DNA from: a virus
Lineage: Duplodnaviria > Caudoviricetes
Virus record (IMG/VR): IMGVR_UViG_3300011338_000290
Span: 1-53,037 of that record
Direction: 5' to 3' (one strand)
Length of the DNA: 53,037 bases
Shown here: one piece after another, positions 4,574 through 51,758 of the stretch
Position numbering within the stretch: the first letter of the stretch is position 1
Layout: each line of letters starts with the position of its first letter
The notes under the pieces: model-generated
Databases searched by the model: none
What the model was told of the DNA's origin: nothing
The model's input: only the letters and a program-made list of their open reading frames with translations
Program-made: the position numbers and the translations under genes

Positions 4574-4810
4574 ATGAGCTACGGCTATAGTGCTAAAACT
4601 ATAGAGCTTAACAAGAAAGCTGGTAATACTAGGCTTGGGGTTGCGCTGGGTAGAGCTGCAATAAAAAAGGGTGTATCGGTTGCTGATATAGCAGAGATGT
4701 TAAATGTTAGTCGGCAGACGGTATACAACTGGTTTATTGGGGCATACGATCCTAAGCCGGAGCTATCTAAAAGTATCACCAAGCTTATAGCTAATAGACT
4801 TAGTAAGTAA
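4574..4810 (+). CDS. Cro/CI-type helix-turn-helix DNA-binding protein
   Basis: SVADIAEMLNVSRQTVYNWFIG HTH. Confidence 0.85.
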   Translation: MSYGYSAKTIELNKKAGNTRLGVALGRAAIKKGVSVADIAEMLNVSRQTVYNWFIGAYDPKPELSKSITKLIANRLSK

Positions 4811-7905: not shown

Positions 7906-7985
7906 CACAGAACAGCTCGTCTGTTTCTCCTCGGAAGTTAGCTCCTTCCACACTCTTTGCCCCCGCCTCGTGCGGGGGTTTTTTA
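7906..7985 (+). ncRNA. Candidate three-hairpin small regulatory RNA
   Basis: Lies between the promoter and terminator; no ORF; hairpins with CTCGT and TTAGCTC loops; two CTCCT anti-SD tracts. Confidence 0.45.
7959..7985 (+). terminator. Rho-independent terminator at the convergence of replication and late operons
   Basis: CCCCCGC-CTCGT-GCGGGGG then T-tract. Confidence 0.85.
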
Positions 7986-10900
7986 TTTGTACTGCGGAGA
8001 ACGAGTGCCTTCTACTAATGGGTAGACAAATGGAGCTTCTTTATCTGAGACAGATAACCCTTGATATGCTTTGCCACGACGCTCAGCACGAGACTGCAAC
8101 GACTTACTAACTGTTTCACCATTAATGGCTAGCATTGCATTCTTAGTATTAAATTTATCTATTTCTTCTAATATCTTGTCAATCTTGTCGTCATCATCCT
8201 GACGCACTGCAATATCTAAACGATTTAATATATTTTGTTTTTCTCTGTTTATCTCTGTCACTATCTGTTTAGCCATAAAGTTAGCCTTTTGTACTTGCGC
8301 CACTTCGGTGCTTCCAAAGCCTAAAGTTTGTGCAAGCAGTTTGCCTGTTGTGTAGAACTCTGGGTTCATCAACTCATCACCTTTAGTAGTAGTTGCGCCT
8401 TCGCTCTTTAGCCTCATTGAGGTTAAACCACCTCTAAGCCACGCTGGAGAAAGTTTTTCAAAAGCCCTACTAACCTGCCCATTATTCCAATCGTCGTAAG
8501 CACCTGCAAAATTTGCACCCACGCTACCAATTGGACCAGTCCAACTAAACGCAAAGTTTATAAATGCTTGACGAGAAGTTTCTGCAGGAGCATCACTTCT
8601 AAACCACAACCCATCTAAAGAAGTAGAAGTACCTACGTTTAAATCGGTATAAGCAGATATTGGACCCATTTCAACACCACGAGATAACGTAGCAGCTTGC
8701 TCTTCAGTTAAGTTAAAGAAGTTAGCTAGACTGCTATCGGGACCAAAGTAGCTAGGAATAAACGAATTTCTAAACCATAAGTCTAAGCTGCGTTTACCAA
8801 GGGGATTACCTTCGTCGTCTTCGTCGTAGTCTTCGTCTTCTTCATCTCGAAGTAGTTCACGCATACCTTCTGCCATACCCATAATAAAGCTATATAAAGG
8901 GAAACCTGTAACACCAGCAAATAGACCAGTCATACCCAGTGTGCCAAAGAACTTAATAGCCGCTTCTTTCTTTTCTTCTTTATTCAATAATGGCAGCATG
9001 CCGTAGAAGTTACGTACTAAATACGATGTCATCTGTAGCGGGTAGGTCAAGAACTGGAATGCTAAGCGTCCAGCAGCACTCTTCATTGGGGGCGGTTTGT
9101 TGTATTGAGTGTAGTTAAATAAAGCATCGTAGGTTAGCTTTAGGGCTCTTTTAGTAGCTGCATCAAACGCAGCCTTGTCGTCCATACCCTTTTGCTTTGC
9201 GTCTGCGTAAGCTAGTTCAAAACTGGACATGAACATAATTTCACGAGAAATACGCTCAGCGTGGTGGAATGCGCCACCCATTAAATTAAATGTAAACCTA
9301 GTCCCTCTTTCTACTAAACCTTGATAACGAGTACTGGGGGCTGCAGCCATTGCCGTCATATCCCCTGCATAGGTAGACATAAATATATCTTTGTCATTGG
9401 CAAAGTTCCAAGCGTCTTTTAGTACTTTTCTGTACGCTAAATTTTTGTGTTCGTTTACGTACTTAGAGTCATTAATAGATGGCTGACCCCACGAAGTTAC
9501 TACGTTTCCGTTCTCGTCTTTTTTAGTTGTGCCAAATTTATTCCATAAAGCACCATACCTAGCAGCAGTTGCAGTAGCTTTGCCAATACCAAACTCAGCC
9601 CCAAGGGTAGGTAAGCCAACAATCGGTAGCTGGGTCATCTGTACTAATGCAGATTTAGGAGAAGTCAGAAGCCAATAGAACACAAACTTATTACCAATGG
9701 AAGCAACTTGATCCCAATCAAGCCCTTCTTCAGGCACTGTGGGAGTAATTTCATTAATAGCTCGGTTACTAACTTCTCTAATAATAGTAGCTAGCTTTAG
9801 CTTATCCGGATTTTGCTGTATCTCTGCATATGCAGCAGCTATGCCATTGCGAATCTTATCTGAGTACTTTAGTCGAGCTAGCTGATTAGCAGCGGTATGC
9901 TGGCTAACAATAAAGTTGCGGATTGCATCGGCACTAAAACCAGTCTTGCCTTGGCGGTGTACAAACTTACGACGGATGTCCTTATCTGGTAGAGTCATCA
10001 AGTACATTTGATAGATATTGTCTTTAACAGCATCAATATCCGACATCTTGTTTTTATCTAACATTGCAAAGATTTCTTTAAGCATATCGCTAGATTCAAT
10101 ATGTTTTTCTCTTAGTTTGCGAATGTCATTTCCAATATCTATGTCGCCATCGGCAATCATCTGGTCTTTAGTACGCTTGTCCCCAGCTTTATTAAGTTCA
10201 GCAACACGGGCTTCAATGGCGTTGTTACGAGCAACTTCCCCTTCAAACATATAGAACTCGCCACTCTTGCCCTTGCCTACGCTAAACCAGAAGTTACCAT
10301 AACGCATTAATGGGAAATAAACCTCAAGTTGTTTAGCTTCTTGGAAAGTTTTAGTAATAGCCGCAATTAATTTGCCTTTTGGAGTAGACGCATCGTTAAT
10401 ATCTCCAGGTACGTTAGAAGCCGCAATCTTTTCTTTTAGCAATTGCTCATGCGTGTCAAAGGTTTTTTTGTAGCTATCTTTAGCCATCTTATATATGGCA
10501 TGCCCTTCGCCTTTTCCAAATTTACCTAACTGCTCCCAACCACCCATGGTGTATTTCTCACCAGTAACAGGGTTGTTATAAGCGCCGCCTTCATACACTA
10601 ATTTAATTGCTGCAGTGCGCTCAGTTCTTTGTTTTTTAAGGTTAGGTAAAGTTTTAGGGTCCGTAGACGGATTAAGAATGTCATTTTCAATGCGCTGTAA
10701 CTTAGGATCATTCTTTATAGCGGTTGCCGCATCGGGGTGTTTAGTAGGGTCTACCTCTAACAAAGTAGATGCGTTAATTAAATCCGCAAGTATATTGCCG
10801 CCTTCTTCGTATTTTTCATTAAAGTTAATCCAAGCAGGAGTTTTTTCAGCAAGCTCACGGATCATTTGCACCCGCATGCCAGCCATGTCGTCTACAGCGT

Positions 10901-13900
10901 TGTTAATGACTTTTAGGTTATTAATTTTGTCCCCAGCTATGCGGGTAATGTCTTCTGTTGTAAAAGCTTTTAACGCAAGCTTTAATTTGGTAACACTTAT
11001 AGCACCATAAATAGCCTTCATCAAACGAATAGCATCGCTGGCATTTCTAACCTGCATTATTAACTCGCCAATTGAACCGTTTAATGTGGAGTTTCTATTA
11101 GATAATCGAATCTTTCTAAGCAAAGTTTCTACAAGTTTTAATTGCTTAGGTGGTTTAGGTGCTTTTGGCGGTGCAGGTTGTTTTGCTTTGGCTGCTACTG
11201 GTTCCCCAGGAACCGTTACTTCTGGCATTGGTGCAGCTAGCAGCTTATTTGTAACAATAATCAAATCTTGGAGAGCAGAAGTATGCTTCTCGTCCATACT
11301 AAACAACTGACGTATGCTTTGTACAAATTTATTAAATAGCCTATCAACAAAATTAGGCGGAGCACCTGCAAGTACACCTGGAGAAAGAAGTAAAAATTCT
11401 TGCATAGCAGGCAAAGACATGCCGTAAGCCACAAACTCTTTAACGTCAGTAAAAGCGTCATTAGGTATTTCTAGCATTTCTGGGGTGAGTAAACCTAAAT
11501 TGCCAGTCTCCAAAGCTTGAGCAAAGAGAGCATCATAGTTATCTTTTGCCCGTATCATCAAAGCCATAAGCTCTGCCACTGGACGCAAAGAATTAGGAAT
11601 AGGTTTCTTTGCTTCTCTTAATTCTAGATAGGCATTAATACGGGCAACGGTTGCAGCGTGTAAAGCTTCGTGTAACACAACAGTATTGTTAATACCGCCG
11701 CTACGCATTACATAAATAGTATTTCTGTCAGGTACATATAAACCTGCTGCTCCCATCATTTTGTCTCGTAGGAATGCAGTAGGCATATCGTCTGCACTAT
11801 CTACTACAACAAACTTAACTCCGTTAAGGAAAGGGAGTAACCGTCTAGCTAGTATTTTTTCAAAGGGGTTGCCGTTATTAGCAATCCAACTTACTGCGCT
11901 TCGTGCGTTATTGTATTTTTCAAAGACAGTGTTATCCTGCCCATTAGTAGATTCTGACATTTGGGCACGGCTAGGTGCGCCTATTCTTTGCTTAGCCTCG
12001 TATCTTAGTTTACCTAACTCACGTTCTTGCGGGTCAGCTTTCTCTAATGCTGCAGTTGCTCTAGTACCTGCGGTTTTTTTCTTTTGGTTGGGGTCAACGG
12101 ATAAACCATATGCAACCGATAGAGCATCTATGCGTTCTTGCCTTAAACCATACAAAATATCCTGAGCTTCTTTCTCACTGGCAGAGCGTTCAAGAATAGC
12201 GGCTTCGTCAACTGTTTGAGCTAAAGTTTTTTCGGCTTTAGCAATTGCATTGATAGCATCCCGTCCAGAAGCTATTTGCTGTTTTTTAGTCGCAGCGGCA
12301 GCGGCTATTTGTTCTGGAGTTTTTGCAGCGGCTGGTCTGCCACGAGGTTTGCCTGTTTTGACTGGTGGTGTTGTTACATCCTCGGTAGCTTCTGTATCAA
12401 CAGGGAGTTTGTCATATATTGTCTTAAACTTTTCACCTGTTAATTCCTCAAAACGTTTAGCTCTTCTTGGCTCACTTTCTCTTAAAAAAGCATCTAACTC
12501 AGCTCTAATTTTATCTACCTTTAATTTTGTTGGGCGATTAGGATAAGTGTCTTGTGACTTTCTTTCTGCTCTCTCAGCATCAGCTAGTCTTCGTTTTATC
12601 TTGTTAAGTGTTTGTAAATCTTCTTCCGCAGTAGGCTCTACAGAAGTAGTGGTAGGTGCACCCATACCAGCCGCAACTTGTTTTTGCCGTAAGCTTTCTG
12701 TAGCGGCAGCGGTTGCTTGCTCGTCGGTTAAGTTGTATTTAACTTTTAAGTCTGCAGCTAGTGTATTGAGTTCAGTTCCTTCTCCGCCTCCAACAGCAGT
12801 AGTAGTTGTGCCAGCTGCTGCCAGGTCTCCTCCGGTAGTGTCAATAGCTCCCGTGTCGGTTTCGCTTGGTTTGCCAGGCACAGAAACGCCTGGTTGATCT
12901 GCTCCACCGATAGTTGATTCAGTTCCATCTAATAGCCCTCCTTGCAAAATAGCATCGCCTGCAACGGCGTAGGCTTCTTGTTCAGTATATGGTTGATTTG
13001 TATCTGGATTAACTGAAGCCTTTAGCTTCTCAACAGTCTCATTAAACTGCTGACCTAAATTGTCTAAAGCACCAGGGGCATTAAGCTTATCAAGGATTTT
13101 CTTTTGATCTTCAACGGCTTTAGCTTCTGCTTCTCTTTTAGCAATTGTAGATGGCAAGCGCTCATAAGCCTCACGTCCACCAAATGCTGCTGTCTCTAAT
13201 AAACTAGTTGGACCTTCACCAACGGCTTCCATAAGGACTTGCCCAGGCTTTTTAATCTCTCCTTCGGTAGCAAGTTGAGCAGCTGCTTCACCACCAGCTC
13301 CGCTAATTACTTGTGCGGCGGGTTGGGCTACACCGATATTGACCGCTTCTTTTGCTACTTGGTTCTTTATTACTGTCTTAGGCACAAGCAATTTACCAGC
13401 TAATCCAGCAGCAGCCGTATCTACAGCGCCAATAATAGAAGCCCTTGTCATTGCATGCTCGTAAGCTTTAGCAAATAAAGTTGGATCATTTAACGCTTTA
13501 TTAACAGCGGCAGGGTCTTTTACATTTACCCCTTGCTCTTGGAAGTATTCTGTAATACCCGAAGATAACTCACTAGCAAAGCTAGTACTACCCATAGCCA
13601 TTGCACCAACTCTAGGATTACGGGTTACTGCGCCTAATACAAGTGCAGGTACTAGTTGTGGGACGCTCTCTAAGGACACGCTAGCCATGACACCCAAAGG
13701 ATCAACTTGGAACGCATCAAATGCTTGCCGTGCCGTCTTTACATCAGACAAAGCTTCTATCGTAGGTCTTTTTCTATATTGAGCAGCTTCAGCCTGGGTC
13801 TCCATTAGCTTTTGTTGAGATTGAGCTTGAGCGCCCTGTAACTCTTTAAGTCTAGCTTCTGCCGCTTCTGGTGTTAGTGGTCTGCCAAGAGGGTCTGTAG

Positions 13901-14330
13901 CCTTACCTTCTCGGATTAAATTGATTTCGTTTTGAATGTTGGCAACTTGAACACCAGGCAATATTCCTTTTGCAGCTGCATAGCCAGACTTTAACGGGTC
14001 AGTTATACGTTGTAAGAACGGTACTTCTCTTTCGTACTTTGCAGTCTCTTCTGCTAATTGTTTCTTTTGTTGCTCAGTTAACCCTGTGCTTGGTTGTACT
14101 GTAGGTTCAGCTTGGGTTGTTACTTCTTCTGGGCTAAGTATGGGTGCAGTTACAGAAGCAGGGGCGGCTTTAGGTTTATCTTTAGAAAGAAGATGAGTCA
14201 ATATCTCAGTATCAGGAACGCCTGCTTCCCTAGCCCCAGCTAAGTTGTACTTGTATTTTGAGGCAAGATAATTGTTAATCTCAGCATCGCTAAGACCCGC
14301 CTTTCTTGCGCCCTCAACATCATATGCCAT
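7983..14330 (-). CDS. Giant internal virion/DNA-ejection protein (polyvalent type) with zincin-like HExxH domain
   Basis: 2115 aa; last late gene; VVLHEALHAAT motif with downstream EFVAY; duplicated N-terminal Y.(V/L).GAR.AG..D.EI motif. Confidence 0.7.
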   Translation of the reverse strand: MAYDVEGARKAGLSDAEINNYLASKYKYNLAGAREAGVPDTEILTHLLSKDKPKAAPASVTAPILSPEEVTTQAEPTVQPSTGLTEQQKKQLAEETAKYEREVPFLQRITDPLKSGYAAAKGILPGVQVANIQNEINLIREGKATDPLGRPLTPEAAEARLKELQGAQAQSQQKLMETQAEAAQYRKRPTIEALSDVKTARQAFDAFQVDPLGVMASVSLESVPQLVPALVLGAVTRNPRVGAMAMGSTSFASELSSGITEYFQEQGVNVKDPAAVNKALNDPTLFAKAYEHAMTRASIIGAVDTAAAGLAGKLLVPKTVIKNQVAKEAVNIGVAQPAAQVISGAGGEAAAQLATEGEIKKPGQVLMEAVGEGPTSLLETAAFGGREAYERLPSTIAKREAEAKAVEDQKKILDKLNAPGALDNLGQQFNETVEKLKASVNPDTNQPYTEQEAYAVAGDAILQGGLLDGTESTIGGADQPGVSVPGKPSETDTGAIDTTGGDLAAAGTTTTAVGGGEGTELNTLAADLKVKYNLTDEQATAAATESLRQKQVAAGMGAPTTTSVEPTAEEDLQTLNKIKRRLADAERAERKSQDTYPNRPTKLKVDKIRAELDAFLRESEPRRAKRFEELTGEKFKTIYDKLPVDTEATEDVTTPPVKTGKPRGRPAAAKTPEQIAAAAATKKQQIASGRDAINAIAKAEKTLAQTVDEAAILERSASEKEAQDILYGLRQERIDALSVAYGLSVDPNQKKKTAGTRATAALEKADPQERELGKLRYEAKQRIGAPSRAQMSESTNGQDNTVFEKYNNARSAVSWIANNGNPFEKILARRLLPFLNGVKFVVVDSADDMPTAFLRDKMMGAAGLYVPDRNTIYVMRSGGINNTVVLHEALHAATVARINAYLELREAKKPIPNSLRPVAELMALMIRAKDNYDALFAQALETGNLGLLTPEMLEIPNDAFTDVKEFVAYGMSLPAMQEFLLLSPGVLAGAPPNFVDRLFNKFVQSIRQLFSMDEKHTSALQDLIIVTNKLLAAPMPEVTVPGEPVAAKAKQPAPPKAPKPPKQLKLVETLLRKIRLSNRNSTLNGSIGELIMQVRNASDAIRLMKAIYGAISVTKLKLALKAFTTEDITRIAGDKINNLKVINNAVDDMAGMRVQMIRELAEKTPAWINFNEKYEEGGNILADLINASTLLEVDPTKHPDAATAIKNDPKLQRIENDILNPSTDPKTLPNLKKQRTERTAAIKLVYEGGAYNNPVTGEKYTMGGWEQLGKFGKGEGHAIYKMAKDSYKKTFDTHEQLLKEKIAASNVPGDINDASTPKGKLIAAITKTFQEAKQLEVYFPLMRYGNFWFSVGKGKSGEFYMFEGEVARNNAIEARVAELNKAGDKRTKDQMIADGDIDIGNDIRKLREKHIESSDMLKEIFAMLDKNKMSDIDAVKDNIYQMYLMTLPDKDIRRKFVHRQGKTGFSADAIRNFIVSQHTAANQLARLKYSDKIRNGIAAAYAEIQQNPDKLKLATIIREVSNRAINEITPTVPEEGLDWDQVASIGNKFVFYWLLTSPKSALVQMTQLPIVGLPTLGAEFGIGKATATAARYGALWNKFGTTKKDENGNVVTSWGQPSINDSKYVNEHKNLAYRKVLKDAWNFANDKDIFMSTYAGDMTAMAAAPSTRYQGLVERGTRFTFNLMGGAFHHAERISREIMFMSSFELAYADAKQKGMDDKAAFDAATKRALKLTYDALFNYTQYNKPPPMKSAAGRLAFQFLTYPLQMTSYLVRNFYGMLPLLNKEEKKEAAIKFFGTLGMTGLFAGVTGFPLYSFIMGMAEGMRELLRDEEDEDYDEDDEGNPLGKRSLDLWFRNSFIPSYFGPDSSLANFFNLTEEQAATLSRGVEMGPISAYTDLNVGTSTSLDGLWFRSDAPAETSRQAFINFAFSWTGPIGSVGANFAGAYDDWNNGQVSRAFEKLSPAWLRGGLTSMRLKSEGATTTKGDELMNPEFYTTGKLLAQTLGFGSTEVAQVQKANFMAKQIVTEINREKQNILNRLDIAVRQDDDDKIDKILEEIDKFNTKNAMLAINGETVSKSLQSRAERRGKAYQGLSVSDKEAPFVYPLVEGTRSPQYK

Positions 14331-16690: not shown

Positions 16691-17143
16691 TTACAACATC
16701 TTAGTAAATATTTTATCTGTATGTTTGTATCCTAAATACTCAAACAACTTAGAATTGTCTAAATGTACTTTAGTGTGCATTACAACCCTATTTACTCCAC
16801 GTTCTTTTAAAACTTGTTCAGCGTACTGAAACAACCTAATTCCTACTCGACCTTTTCTGTATTCTTTTTTAACAAAATACAAATCTTCAAAAGCCGTCAA
16901 ACAATCTTTGTAGTGCAAATGAGGCTGGATGTAAAAAATAATATATCCAATTAACTCACCATCTGCCCTACAAGTAATAGTCCTTAATAAACCTGCTTCA
17001 CCCATCTGCCTATAAGCATCATAGTTTGGATTGGCAGGGTAATCTTTTGTTACACATAACTCATCATAATGCTCAGGAAACAACTTTTCAAACTCTGGTA
17101 TAAAGTCAAGCCCGTTGACGTCTTCATATACAAGTGTTGTCAT
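16691..17143 (-). CDS. GNAT-family acetyltransferase
   Basis: FVKKEYRKGRVGIRL acetyl-CoA-binding motif A; LFEYLGY motif B. Confidence 0.85.
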   Translation of the reverse strand: MTTLVYEDVNGLDFIPEFEKLFPEHYDELCVTKDYPANPNYDAYRQMGEAGLLRTITCRADGELIGYIIFYIQPHLHYKDCLTAFEDLYFVKKEYRKGRVGIRLFQYAEQVLKERGVNRVVMHTKVHLDNSKLFEYLGYKHTDKIFTKML

Positions 17144-46576: not shown

Positions 46577-48112
46577 TTATACGTTGTAGTACCCTTTGTG
46601 CTTACGTGATCTAAACGCCATTGGCTCGTCTTCATAATCAGATTCCAATGATACAAAGCCACCACGCCTGAATCTTAACAGGGCTTGTGACATGCTGTCT
46701 ACTAAGTCATCATGCTCTCCACTAGGAAAAGATGCAACTTCTTCTATAAGTTCTTCCGCCCAGTGTGTTTGAGGAACCCAGACTTTTCCAGAAGCAAATA
46801 TGTCTGCTACCGCATTTAGACGAGCAATCTTGTCATTGCCCTTGCTGGGGGTGAACTCTTGGACAGGAATACCCATTGCCCTAAGCTCAAATATTAAGGG
46901 AGACCCTGCCGCCTTGGCTTCGACAATCATAGCGTCTGGTTCCCACTCTTTATATTCTTCATAAGCCTTTTGTTTTAATTCTGGAAACTCCATACGGCGT
47001 TTAAATGCATTTAATAGGATGATATTAGCGCCAGGAACCCCTACCGCATTGTCCCGATAGAACACACCCCACGTTGTACAGGCTGAATAGTCTGCCCTTT
47101 CTGACTTTAAGAACGCCGTATCCCACGACTGGATGACAAATTCACAGCTAGGAGGGCTATCTTGGTCCCAAATCTGCCACCATTCCCGTTTGACGATTGC
47201 CGAGACGTCAGAAGTAGGTGCTTGCATGTACTGAGCCTGCCATTTACCCGCTGGAAGCTCATTTTTGAGGGCTAAAAGCTCTGTTTGGCTCCAAAATTCA
47301 GGCCAAAGTGGCTGTCCATCGTCAAAAATAGCTGGAAACTCAATAAGTTTCCATCCCTCGCCCTCTCTTTGAGCATCTGCTTTGATAACTTGACCCGTTA
47401 AGTCCTTCTTAGACCACCGGGTCATCACAATAATGATCGCCCCACCCGGTTGCAGACGCTGTCTTGGACCCGATGTGTACCATTCGTAGGTCTTATCGTA
47501 GATTTCTGGGTTAGTTTCGGCTATTGTGGCTTCTTGTTCTGAATGCGGGTCGTCAATAATGAGTATATCTGCGCCCTTACCAGTGACCGCTCCACCAACA
47601 CCGATTGCAAAGTAATCTCCACCCTTATTAGTTGCCCAACGGCCTGCGGCTTTGCTATCTGCTTGGAGCCCAACTCCCGGAAATATTGACTTGTATATGT
47701 CTGAGTCGACCAAATTACGGACTTTGCGTCCGAAGCCCACAGCAAGCTCAGCGGTATGGGAGGTTTGAATAACTTTCTTCTGAGGAAATTTGCCCAGAAA
47801 CCAAGCAGGAAGGAGGTAACTAGCAAATTCAGATTTTGTATGCCTAGGGGGCATATTGATAATAAGTCTCTTACACGTTCCATTTGCTACCTCCTCAAAT
47901 GCGGCTGCCATATCCTTGTGGTGGCGACCTTCTATGAACACAGGCCAGACCTTCTTTACAAACGACATGAAGCGAATCTGCGCCAACTCTTTGTTTTGAA
48001 GCTTTTCTAATAACTCTAAGTCCTCTGCGAGCTTTAGCTGCTCCGCTTCAGACAACATAGGAAGAATCTTGGGTATATCTTTAAGGGATATGGTATCGAG
48101 GAGGCTACTCAT
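46577..48112 (-). CDS. terL: Terminase large subunit
   Basis: NMPPRHTKS Walker A, IIDDP Walker B, SWDTA and HDDLVDS nuclease motifs. Confidence 0.95.
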   Translation of the reverse strand: MSSLLDTISLKDIPKILPMLSEAEQLKLAEDLELLEKLQNKELAQIRFMSFVKKVWPVFIEGRHHKDMAAAFEEVANGTCKRLIINMPPRHTKSEFASYLLPAWFLGKFPQKKVIQTSHTAELAVGFGRKVRNLVDSDIYKSIFPGVGLQADSKAAGRWATNKGGDYFAIGVGGAVTGKGADILIIDDPHSEQEATIAETNPEIYDKTYEWYTSGPRQRLQPGGAIIIVMTRWSKKDLTGQVIKADAQREGEGWKLIEFPAIFDDGQPLWPEFWSQTELLALKNELPAGKWQAQYMQAPTSDVSAIVKREWWQIWDQDSPPSCEFVIQSWDTAFLKSERADYSACTTWGVFYRDNAVGVPGANIILLNAFKRRMEFPELKQKAYEEYKEWEPDAMIVEAKAAGSPLIFELRAMGIPVQEFTPSKGNDKIARLNAVADIFASGKVWVPQTHWAEELIEEVASFPSGEHDDLVDSMSQALLRFRRGGFVSLESDYEDEPMAFRSRKHKGYYNV

Positions 48113-48131: not shown

Positions 48132-48755
48132 TCACTTTTTGCCTTCAGGCTCGTCTACCGTCGCTTCTGCGTTTACCTCTACTGGAGTACCCATATCTAC
48201 CACACCCAGGACGTCGTCTAAGGTATCTGCGCTCATAGTGTTCTCTGGGGTTATATCTCTAGCATTCAGTAGGCGCTTGACCCGCTCCTTAATAGCGTCT
48301 TCTAGATCGGATGAGTTTTTGTAGGTCACGGTCACTTCGGAACGCTCTGTAAATAAGGCTATATCGGAGTGCTTACCTAGGAGCTCTAATGCTTTGAGTT
48401 CAAACCGGGGGTCCCCACAGTTCGCTAGCTCTAGTAGCTTATTGGTAAGCGCCGCACGAACGTCGCTCATCTCGGCGGCTATACGCCCGCTATATACACG
48501 CAAAAATTCTCGTGCAGCAAATGCAACGGGTGGGGACGCTAGAGCGCCTTTGTTCTGAGTCTTTACGGCTTTATCTAAAAGACCTGCCGTTTTTACTGCG
48601 TCTTCTTGGGTGATCTCAGGTGGCGGACCTAGCTGGTCTAGGAGATCTTGGGTGTTAGCAACGACTGCGAGTTCTTCCGCAAAAGACGACGTCTCTACAT
48701 CCGCCGTGTCGTACGGAGGAGGAATGTCCTTGGTAGGCTCAATATTAATTGTCAT
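48132..48755 (-). CDS. terS: Terminase small subunit (putative)
   Basis: Directly upstream of terL; LKALELLGK motif; start set at MTINIEP. Confidence 0.7.
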   Translation of the reverse strand: MTINIEPTKDIPPPYDTADVETSSFAEELAVVANTQDLLDQLGPPPEITQEDAVKTAGLLDKAVKTQNKGALASPPVAFAAREFLRVYSGRIAAEMSDVRAALTNKLLELANCGDPRFELKALELLGKHSDIALFTERSEVTVTYKNSSDLEDAIKERVKRLLNARDITPENTMSADTLDDVLGVVDMGTPVEVNAEATVDEPEGKK

Positions 48756-48795
48756 TGCAGGGCGTAATACAAATAAATGCGCTCCAGTTTCCCGC

Positions 48796-48825
48796 AATAT
48801 AACACAACAAAAATAAAAGGAGCAA
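48796..48825 (-). promoter_or_regulatory. Putative late-operon promoter
   Basis: TTGCTC-18-TATATT with TGTGT before the -10, as in the early promoters. Confidence 0.5.
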
Positions 48826-48916
48826 TAGGTGGGGTACTTGCGGGCCTAGATATGTGAAGCCAAATCCGCTTTCCCCCGTGCTCACGTGAAGAGCAAGAAA
48901 ATTATATTTGAAAAAT

Positions 48917-48934
48917 ATACCCCCCGGGGGGTAT
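48917..48934. repeat. Perfect 18-bp palindrome
   Basis: ATACCCCCCGGGGGGTAT. Confidence 0.9.
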
Positions 48935-48965
48935 TGAAATAAAAAAGGTAAGGGGGGTGTTTCTG

Positions 48966-48981
48966 TGTTCCACGTGGAACA
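48966..48981. promoter_or_regulatory. parS: Chromosomal-type parS site
   Basis: TGTTCCACGTGGAACA, perfect 16-bp palindrome matching the bacterial ParB-binding consensus. Confidence 0.8.
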
Positions 48982-49202
48982 AAACTTGTGGATATTTAAG
49001 TAGGGGGAGGGGGGTTAAGCTACGGTAGACGTATGAGAACGGGGAAAGTGAGGGTGAAATTTTAAAGTTGTGTATCTCTTGTGCAAATTAGTGAGTATAG
49101 GTGGACTAACAATCCTTTTTTTAATTTTGGGGTGGTGGGGTCGCATGGCTCGCCACGTCCTAACATTGTTAGGGGTAGGGGGTATTTATAGTTTCCATAG
49201 AG

Positions 49203-49232
49203 TTGAAAATGTAACACAAAATGCTGTATAAT
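49203..49232 (+). promoter_or_regulatory. Early sigma70 promoter
   Basis: TTGAAA-18-TATAAT. Confidence 0.7.
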
Positions 49233-49240
49233 AAACTCAA

Positions 49241-49360
49241 GCAAGCGAAATCTTGCGAGGGCTTCAAGGGTTGAACTAGGTGGGGATCGAATCCCACGTG
49301 ACTTGCGAAGTGACCGCTTTGACCTAGGGGGTGACAGCCCTAGCGAGTGCGAAGTCAGCC
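49241..49360 (+). ncRNA. Candidate structured leader/small RNA
   Basis: Five consecutive short hairpins between the promoter and the first early ORF. Confidence 0.45.
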
Positions 49361-49397
49361 AGTAGTTTTCTTTTAACTTTCTTTCTAAGGAATAATC

Positions 49398-49925
49398 ATG
49401 GATCAAGTATTTGATGTTGCTGATTTAATTACTGCTATCGAGCAAGCCCGTGTTAATGTTGCTGAGGGTTTGCGTGGCGCTTATGGCGCTAAGGTTGCAT
49501 ATGCTGGTTTGCTCAATCAAAAATGGGCAAGTTTTGACTGGTTTGAACTTAATCACAATGATTCAAGTGATGAGGGCAAAGCAGTAAGGAAAGAGAAAGA
49601 GGCTTTTTACGAAGTCTTAAAGGGTGAGCAACACTCAAACCCCCACAAGATTTGGGGTGACATTCGTAAATACGCTAAGACCGATCGCTATGGCAAGCCA
49701 GTAGTTGATGGCGAGCAAGGCGAGGGTGGCGAGGGTGGCGAGCAAGGCAGTGACAACGCCAAGCATAATCGTTCACCCCAGTTGCGTAACCTTGAGGAAC
49801 TTACCGCATTATTCAAGTTCAATCGTCGCCAAGATTCATTGAGTGACGAACTCAAGCAATGCCAAGCATATATCGCCAAGGCATTGGAATCGTTAGGTGT
49901 CAATGTAACAATGATTGGCGACTAA
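49398..49925 (+). CDS. Early protein of unknown function, paralog A
   Basis: AAGGA RBS; clear paralog of 51243-51758. Confidence 0.85.
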   Translation: MDQVFDVADLITAIEQARVNVAEGLRGAYGAKVAYAGLLNQKWASFDWFELNHNDSSDEGKAVRKEKEAFYEVLKGEQHSNPHKIWGDIRKYAKTDRYGKPVVDGEQGEGGEGGEQGSDNAKHNRSPQLRNLEELTALFKFNRRQDSLSDELKQCQAYIAKALESLGVNVTMIGD

Positions 49926-51242: not shown

Positions 51243-51758
51243 ATGGAATTTATCGCTAATCAAGATGTAGAAGTAATCGTATCCCAAAAGCGTCAAGGTG
51301 CAATTGACGCACAGGCTAGCACTTATGGTGCTAATGTGGAATACGCAGGGGCATTGAACTTGAAGTTCGAGTTCGATTGGTTCGAGTTGCAACACAACGA
51401 CAGTTCGGACGAAGGCAAGGCAGTCCGCAAAGAAAAGACCTTGTTCTTTGAAGGCTTGAAAGAAATCGGGCATTCCAACCCGTCCAAAGTTTGGAAAGAT
51501 GTGCGAGATTACGGCAGAGAAAACCGCTACGGCAAACCCGTTGTGCCTACCGCAGAAGGTGCAGATGGTGAGTCCGAGTCCGAAGGGGACGCAAAGCATA
51601 ATCGTTCCCCTGAGTTGCGGAACATGGAGGAGTTGCTAGCCCTCTATAAGTTCAACCGCAGACAGGAGTCCCTCTCCCCCAAGATCACCAAGGTGCAACA
51701 AAAGATTGGTGAAGCCTTGCAAGAGATGGGAGTTGATCTCCATATGATCGCAGACTAA
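51243..51758 (+). CDS. Early protein of unknown function, paralog B
   Basis: AAGGAG RBS; clear paralog of 49398-49925. Confidence 0.85.
   Translation: MEFIANQDVEVIVSQKRQGAIDAQASTYGANVEYAGALNLKFEFDWFELQHNDSSDEGKAVRKEKTLFFEGLKEIGHSNPSKVWKDVRDYGRENRYGKPVVPTAEGADGESESEGDAKHNRSPELRNMEELLALYKFNRRQESLSPKITKVQQKIGEALQEMGVDLHMIAD

Follow-up and report, generated by a model that had tools for sequence, protein, structure and literature searches.

A host-type parS palindrome as one of several alternative cassettes in the control region of an aquatic phage

What would a phage without partition genes do with a perfect copy of the centromere site of bacterial chromosomes? The question is raised by an IMG/VR virus record of 53,037 bp (linear, estimated to be 84% complete), which was analysed over its entire length and is called the window below. 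A preliminary description had pointed out a perfect chromosomal-type parS site, TGTTCCACGTGGAACA (48966-48981), followed 5 bp later by a DnaA-box-like 9-mer, TGTGGATAT (48987-48995, plus strand), in a divergent late/early control region, and had proposed that the phage thereby mimics the origin region of its host. Both motifs and their spacing were confirmed in the sequence at these coordinates, with the 16-mer matching the consensus palindrome tGTTNCACGTGNAACa at 16/16 positions, and the divergent setting is borne out by the leftward late block and the rightward early promoter that flank the site. The main interest of the locus lies in the exchangeable cassette slot that holds this parS and in the broad enrichment of orphan parS sites in viral contigs.

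The parS site and its genomic setting

The window belongs to an aquatic phage of roughly 60 kb with a GC content of 44%. According to ORF and profile annotation, its genome is organised in two arms, namely a leftward late block, which runs from an ORF in the small-terminase position (48132-48797, minus strand) through the large terminase (46577-48112), portal and capsid genes to a 2115-aa DarB-like protein, and a rightward arm of early and replication genes. The parS site is located between the small-terminase-position ORF and the early promoter, in a divergent region of 600 bp. As this first gene of the late block is unannotated, with no Pfam or PHROG family match and viral hypothetical clusters only in the Atlas, the label terS given to it in the preliminary description is a positional one. 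The 2115-aa protein (7983-14330) matches a DarB-like antirestriction PHROG and, weakly and below the cut-off, the LPD39 polyvalent-protein domain, and is probably an injected anti-defence protein. An acetyltransferase gene at 16691-17143 has no homologue in 7 relatives, and a tRNA search of the window found none.

Several other elements were recognised in the control region. The strong early sigma70-type promoter, TTGAAA-18-TATAAT (49203-49232, plus strand), matches the consensus at 11/12 positions, and its -10 element is invariant in the alignment of control regions. The first early ORF (49398-49925, plus strand) has a paralogue 1.8 kb downstream (51243-51758; 54% identity, E = 1e-63), no family match being found for either. 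A 7-1-7 palindrome, CCTAACATTGTTAGG (49159-49173), is conserved about 30 bp upstream of the early -35, with a core, TAACAATGTTAG, invariant in 8/8 aligned sequences; a small HTH protein (4574-4810), whose recognition helix is identical across four cassette types of the slot described below, may speculatively be considered as its partner. On the minus strand, a promoter-like site, TTTGCA-17-TAAAAT (49059-49087), was identified as a consensus match within a block conserved in alignment A1. Further towards the late genes, an 18-bp perfect palindrome with a T run, ATACCCCCCGGGGGGTAT (48917-48934, minus strand), is conserved in most relatives and adjoins a TATAAT at 48902-48907; it might act as a terminator on the minus strand ahead of the late genes, or else be bound by a protein. 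The late genes may need antitermination or an activator. A second palindrome with a CACGTG core, TCACGTGA (48882-48889), is conserved across cassette types. The hexamer CACGTG itself occurs 6 times in the window, 3 of these inside the 600-bp control region (48883, 48971 and 49295), compared with expectations of about 9.7 genome-wide and about 0.1 for the control region.

The parS site is present in single copy, as no other stretch of the window matches the 16-mer pattern with 3 mismatches or fewer, and by calculation 53 kb would contain the exact 16-mer about 1e-5 times by chance. The window has no more than two perfect 16-bp palindromes, both in the intergenic part of the control region, the other one being located inside ATACCCCCCGGGGGGTAT, 48 bp off. 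The site carries the C5/G12 variant of parS. PMC4368675 (Table 1) lists the same 16-mer as parS2/parS3 of P. aeruginosa and, according to PMC5450999, the C5/G12 form is the chromosomal parS of all Pseudomonas species, with TGTTTCACGTGAAACA canonical elsewhere.

The 16-mer was also found to be conserved in a subset of relatives. Perfect sites of the parS family are located 190-330 bp upstream of the small-terminase-position gene in 9 of 68 related viral loci, and parS occupies the same spot in 10/36 distinct related scaffold sequences, distributed in at least 3 clades of the neighbouring gene's tree. Among these 10 sequences, one of the 16 columns inside the site is variable, compared with 88/176 in the flanks (one-sided Fisher p = 4.5e-4, a generous value since the flanks include poorly aligned stretches). 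The sole variant, TGTTCCACGTGAAACA (G12 to A), is carried by L005, L028 and L029; it affects a degenerate position of the consensus and was also encountered among the chromosomal sites of a MAG, 1 kb away from a canonical parS. A diverged strain of the phage, from a run of another study, appears to keep the 16-mer, as 0 of the 40 differences listed fall inside it, with 14 more unlisted. The recurrence at the same spot in 10/36 relatives, together with a sole change that falls on a degenerate consensus position, indicates that the parS in the window is not a chance occurrence. More distantly, 5/5 isolated relatives have no perfect parS.

An exchangeable slot in a conserved scaffold

Using the 48132-48797 ORF as query, 68 related viral loci were recovered. 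Pattern scans of viral and metagenome collections gave 34 distinct scaffold sequences, to which L002 and L316 were added for a total of 36, with the reservation that some short fragments among them may share a population. In alignments with homologous flanks on both sides, wholesale replacement is confined to 22 nt (48965-48986), which here hold parS and 6 flanking bases, and the boundaries of this slot are sharp. Around it, the conserved scaffold (48917-49014) comprises the C6G6 palindrome, a T/A run, a G-tract, the slot, the 9-mer and a G5AG6 block or, in late-gene orientation, the CCCCCCTCCCCCTACT block, TAAATATCCACA, the slot, AGAAACACCCCCC, a T run, the C6G6 palindrome and a T run. The scaffold is better conserved than the neighbouring gene in the distant relative L028 (0.84 vs 0.66 nucleotide identity). 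If the leftward promoter-like site is real, the slot is part of a leader that precedes the late genes and is rich in C (49 C vs 16 G over 134 nt).

At least six unrelated cassette types replace parS in relatives, making it one of at least seven types. The commonest alternative, CCCACAAT(C/T)TCCCACA, referred to here as the CCCACA cassette, is found in 11 distinct sequences of the 36 and parS in 10, followed by ..ACGTACCTTA (5 sequences and 1 in inverted orientation), CCCAGTTTCCCAGTT (4), ..AAGGACCTTAA (2), GATGCTCAAGGCGCTC (2) and GCCGCATAATCACCGC (1). The position of parS near the small-terminase-position gene is conserved in a subset of relatives only, the site being in the same slot in 10/36 sequences and replaced by other cassettes in 26/36; parS is not a fixed feature of the family. 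The inverted case is that of L115, in which the ..CAAGACGTACCT.. cassette is reversed within the same scaffold, as would fit an orientation-independent DNA site or an inversion event. The CCCACA cassette, which resembles a 10-bp-period direct-repeat regulator site, was also seen in contigs of unrelated phages, where it either immediately precedes TTGACA..TATAAT promoters or lies within them (L288, L291, L294, L305, L307, L308, L310, L314, L315 and L317), the total of 40 stretches being within the chance range. No viral contig matched the exact 30-mer spanning parS and the 9-mer, because relatives differ in the 5-bp spacer.

The 9-mer itself is part of the scaffold, being exact in 26/34 distinct scaffold sequences whichever cassette is present. 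It is a genuine 8/9 match to the DnaA box TGTGGATAA, as had been noted before, but the window contains about as many such matches as shuffled sequences do (14 seen vs 13.4 expected), and none of 9/9 exists there. At the slot, the window holds one such 9-mer, and an A/T run adjoins the slot. In relatives with the CCCACA cassette, the latter contributes two TGTGGGAGA repeats in phase with TGTGGATAT, with three TGTGG repeats phased at 10-11 bp, a suggestive hint at a possible array. The idea that parS and the DnaA box together mimic a host origin region is not supported, the 9-mer being statistically unremarkable and present in the scaffold with or without parS.

In order to count cassette exchanges, the tree of the neighbouring small-terminase-position protein (29 rows) was compared with shuffled labels. 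The cassette type changes at least 12 times on this tree, against a shuffled mean of 16.5, and parS/non-parS changes at least 7 times, against a mean of 9.0, with 9% of shuffles doing as well. The window (parS) and L111 (CCCACA) form a sister pair, L005 (parS) is grouped with L004 and L113 (CCCACA), L028 and L029 (parS) are sister to L094 (CCCACA), and different cassettes are found upstream of near-identical small-terminase-position proteins. Given these frequent switches, the slot is exchanged almost independently of the gene beside it, presumably by recombination in the conserved flanks. It was also observed that 30/68 related contigs end within 500 bp upstream of the small-terminase-position gene and that a 38.9-kb contig (L077) ends at the scaffold from the opposite side; such an assembly-break hotspot could reflect cassette polymorphism among strains or a physical end of the genome.

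The probable reader of the site and the occurrence of parS in other phages

If the parS is read by a ParB, is this protein encoded by the phage or by its host? Profile searches of the window, which bear out the earlier remark that no parAB is in view, found no ParB_N, HTH_ParB, ParA-type AAA_31 or Phage_integrase (tyrosine integrase) domain, even at E <= 1. As to a parB beyond the window, which had been left open in the preliminary description, ParB_N is absent from ten related records, namely 5/5 contigs of parS-bearing relatives and 5/5 larger relatives (three of them at least 95% complete), the latter carrying other cassettes or no scaffold. One of the parS-bearing relatives, L070, extends 8 kb past the right end of the window and has no ParB by Pfam or PHROGs; its extension encodes only ORFans, an AAA ATPase, a DUF2201/VWA protein, a DUF3310 protein and a VRR-NUC nuclease. 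Together, the window and its parS-bearing relatives covered all but about 4 kb of the early region of this strain. Since ParB_N is missing from the window and the ten related records, and HTH_ParB from the window, the only plausible ParB is that of the host. A ParB_N match on another contig of MAG bin G014 (C300, L142) was set aside as belonging to an unrelated phage with no similarity to the window's family; that low-GC contig encodes a 199-aa ParB_N-like protein beside a large terminase.

A phage gene that tracks the cassette was likewise searched for, and none was found among the ORF clusters of the early region (1-5 kb, 25 loci) or in a gene-by-gene whole-genome comparison with seven relatives, replication module included. 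The small-terminase-position protein does not track cassette type on its tree. With no tracking phage gene found and the parS identity being exact, a host protein is suggested as reader of the parS allele.

Clues to the host itself are diffuse. The runs containing the window sequence are riverine and freshwater metagenomes, with no RNA data set among the 20 listed, and the nearest isolates (33-45% portal identity) infect Pelagibacter, Roseobacter, cyanobacteria and Caulobacter. Relatives of the large terminase were found on 8 small MAG contigs labelled as eight different taxa, the closest of them, whose large terminase is 94% identical, belonging to a MAG titled Terrimicrobiaceae. This MAG has a ParB gene and two adjacent chromosomal C5/G12 sites next to leuS; in its family, 26/41 genomes have a perfect parS, with 33/33 sites of the C5/G12 form, and a second MAG among 102 contains a related contig. 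The cassettes CCCACAATYTCCCACA and CCCAGTTTCCCAGTTA, looked for as host sites, were found in 0/41 genomes of that family. Terrimicrobiaceae is a weak host lead, undermined by the GC of the MAG's chromosomal contigs (58-60% vs 44% for the phage, a gap of 14-16 points) and by the related contigs in MAGs of seven other taxa. A 31-nt match in G113 was rejected as a host link, as it lies outside any repeat array and is at chance level.

The perfect 16-mer was then looked for across viral contigs in general, where it occurs in at least 120 (L143-L261 among the matches listed), with 90 different flank contexts among the 119 loci listed. Two control palindromes of the same composition, the 16-mer read backwards and a version keeping the CACGTG core with positions 4/5 swapped, gave 3 and 14 viral stretches respectively, an enrichment of the 16-mer of at least 8-fold. 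When 50 longer records picked from the first 80 of these matches were examined, 48 lacked ParB_N and 2 had it, one of them belonging to the 15 records with a completeness of at least 90%; the HTH_ParB cut-off was passed by 0/50. Tyrosine integrase was found in 0/15 near-complete records, a figure for which there is no baseline. No frame of at least 100 aa covers 34% of 122 parS sites, vs 13% of 595 random positions, and 11/119 listed loci have a second parS-like site. Several of these viral sites directly follow a terminator-like hairpin or have a second parS variant as their neighbour. On these sequence counts, an orphan host-type parS looks like a recurrent feature of ParB-less phages. We propose tentatively, and with somewhat less than even confidence, that it is a strategy widely used by non-integrating phages without ParB and not described so far, and that the slot is a family-wide plug-in for host DNA-binding proteins, with recombining alleles of which parS is one. 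In the parts of the literature that were accessible, no publication was found that describes orphan parS sites of host type as a trait of phages in general, or an exchangeable parS cassette.

Proposed role of the site and relation to known systems

How might a phage benefit from such a site? After injection, host ParB-CTP would recognise the 16-mer and close as a clamp, which would slide onto the flanking early and late control DNA; the centromere-like complex formed in this way on the unintegrated phage genome would be acted on by host ParA, and possibly by SMC. By analogy with phi29, the likeliest benefit would be the positioning or partition of phage DNA in slow-growing or non-productively infected cells, that is, in a carrier state. 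The parS would in that case be one allele of a 22-nt plug-in slot, swapped with other binding-site-like cassettes by recombination in the flanks. We consider it an evenly balanced proposition, and the likeliest of the explanations weighed here, that host ParB loads at parS into a centromere-like complex on the unintegrated genome, from which the phage would probably benefit by being partitioned or positioned in a carrier state. Against a role of host ParB, parS is dispensable in the family, another cassette being present in 26/36 scaffold sequences and a perfect site in none of the 5 isolated distant relatives, and there is one site only, compared with five in phi29 and with the usual clusters on chromosomes.

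Host ParB could also bind for a purpose other than partition, either regulatory, with clamps between the early and late promoters damping or timing transcription, or in host takeover, with hundreds of replicated phage copies soaking up ParB and disturbing host segregation and SMC loading. We regard such a purpose as rather unlikely, and the present analyses do not separate it from partition. Regulation would be in keeping with the position of the slot, which has the leftward promoter-like site on one side, the late genes on the other and the early -35 at a distance of 222 bp, and the occurrence of the commonest alternative cassette, CCCACAATCTCCCACA, directly upstream of TTGACA..TATAAT promoters in unrelated phages suggests a regulatory input, but chromosomal ParB has mild effects only on transcription. 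In phi29, moreover, the host-factor sites at early and late promoters are regulatory (PMC2731898). As for titration, a single site would titrate little before the genome has been replicated. It is improbable, on the other hand, that the slot is a cassette-specific operator for a DNA-binding protein other than ParB, of phage or host, with the parS identity arising by convergence on a CACGTG-core palindrome. The alternative cassettes do look like protein sites (direct repeats with an 8-10 bp period, an AAGGnCCTT-like palindrome), the inversion in L115 agrees with an operator, and the 3 of the window's 6 CACGTG hexamers in the control region leave room for another CACGTG-reading factor. However, a 16/16 match to parS together with a second natural parS variant is very unlikely to arise by convergence, neither 1-5 kb of the early region nor the replication module, the HTH protein or the small-terminase-position protein showed any co-variation with the cassette, and the 16-mer is enriched in about 90 unrelated viral contexts among the matches listed.

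It is also conceivable that the parS has no function and has spread as a passenger of recombination, being a small fragment of host DNA or a palindrome that arose by chance; the dispensable and often replaced cassette might suggest this, and it is allowed by the roughly 3-14 viral matches that the control palindromes imply by chance. This seems quite improbable to us, given that half of the flanking columns vary among 10 distinct sequences in all of which the site is kept intact, and that parS recurs in distant backgrounds and exceeds the controls by at least 8-fold across viral contigs. Alternatively, the slot could be the variable segment in a short RNA transcribed leftwards, or in a leader of the late operon, that ends at the C6G6 hairpin, with the 16-mer as an RNA hairpin. 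The scaffold is indeed bracketed by the promoter-like site (49087-49059) and by the terminator-like hairpin with its T run (48934-48917), and the leader would be C-rich and G-poor. Nevertheless, no Rfam match was obtained in 48500-49700, the fold is no better than that of shuffled sequences (z = -1.76), such a hairpin could not be formed by the other cassettes (G is missing altogether from the commonest alternative) and one cassette is found in either orientation, all of which makes an RNA element highly improbable.

If host ParB does load at the site, the phage would obtain cheap positioning and inheritance in non-productive infection without lysogeny or partition genes, which would be relevant to a long-standing problem, the maintenance of carrier states and pseudolysogeny in aquatic bacteria that grow slowly. 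The enrichment of parS in ParB-less viral contigs suggests that the trick of phi29 may be general and would supply a sequence marker for it; many phages would then ride the host ParABS/SMC machinery far beyond the spore case. The slot provides natural allele pairs, parS and other cassettes in near-identical backgrounds, and the parS variant of a phage might help to predict its hosts.

Among known systems, the parABS modules of P1, N15 and mycobacteriophages consist of their own ParA and ParB with a parS of their own specificity. The present site shares with them a centromere-like element on a mobile genome and differs in that no self-encoded module accompanies it, neither ParA nor ParB being found in the window. 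KorB-OB of plasmid RK2 exemplifies a ParB-family clamp acting as a transcriptional repressor, with a plasmid-encoded KorB and a site different from parS; the likeness lies in a ParB-type loading site in a promoter region, and the difference in that no KorB-like protein was found for the window phage. With the chromosomal parS of Pseudomonas and others (PMC4368675 and PMC5450999), the 16-mer is identical, and one site can suffice for segregation, as the title of the former states. Chromosomal sites are typically clustered, origin-proximal copies beside parAB, whereas the window has a single, unclustered site, on a virus, next to neither oriC nor parAB.

The closest precedent is phi29, for which the use of host ParB by way of parS sites on the phage genome is established. 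PMC2731898 describes this lytic Bacillus phage without ParB as having five parS sites for host Spo0J (ParB), which help to trap its genome in the spore, and host Spo0A boxes at its early and late promoters. It has five sites and a spore-forming host, whereas the window phage has one site in an optional 22-nt cassette and no spore route is expected. Both are ParB-less phages with host-type parS and have host-factor sites in a divergent early/late control region, and for both the proposed use is the passive carriage of an unintegrated genome.
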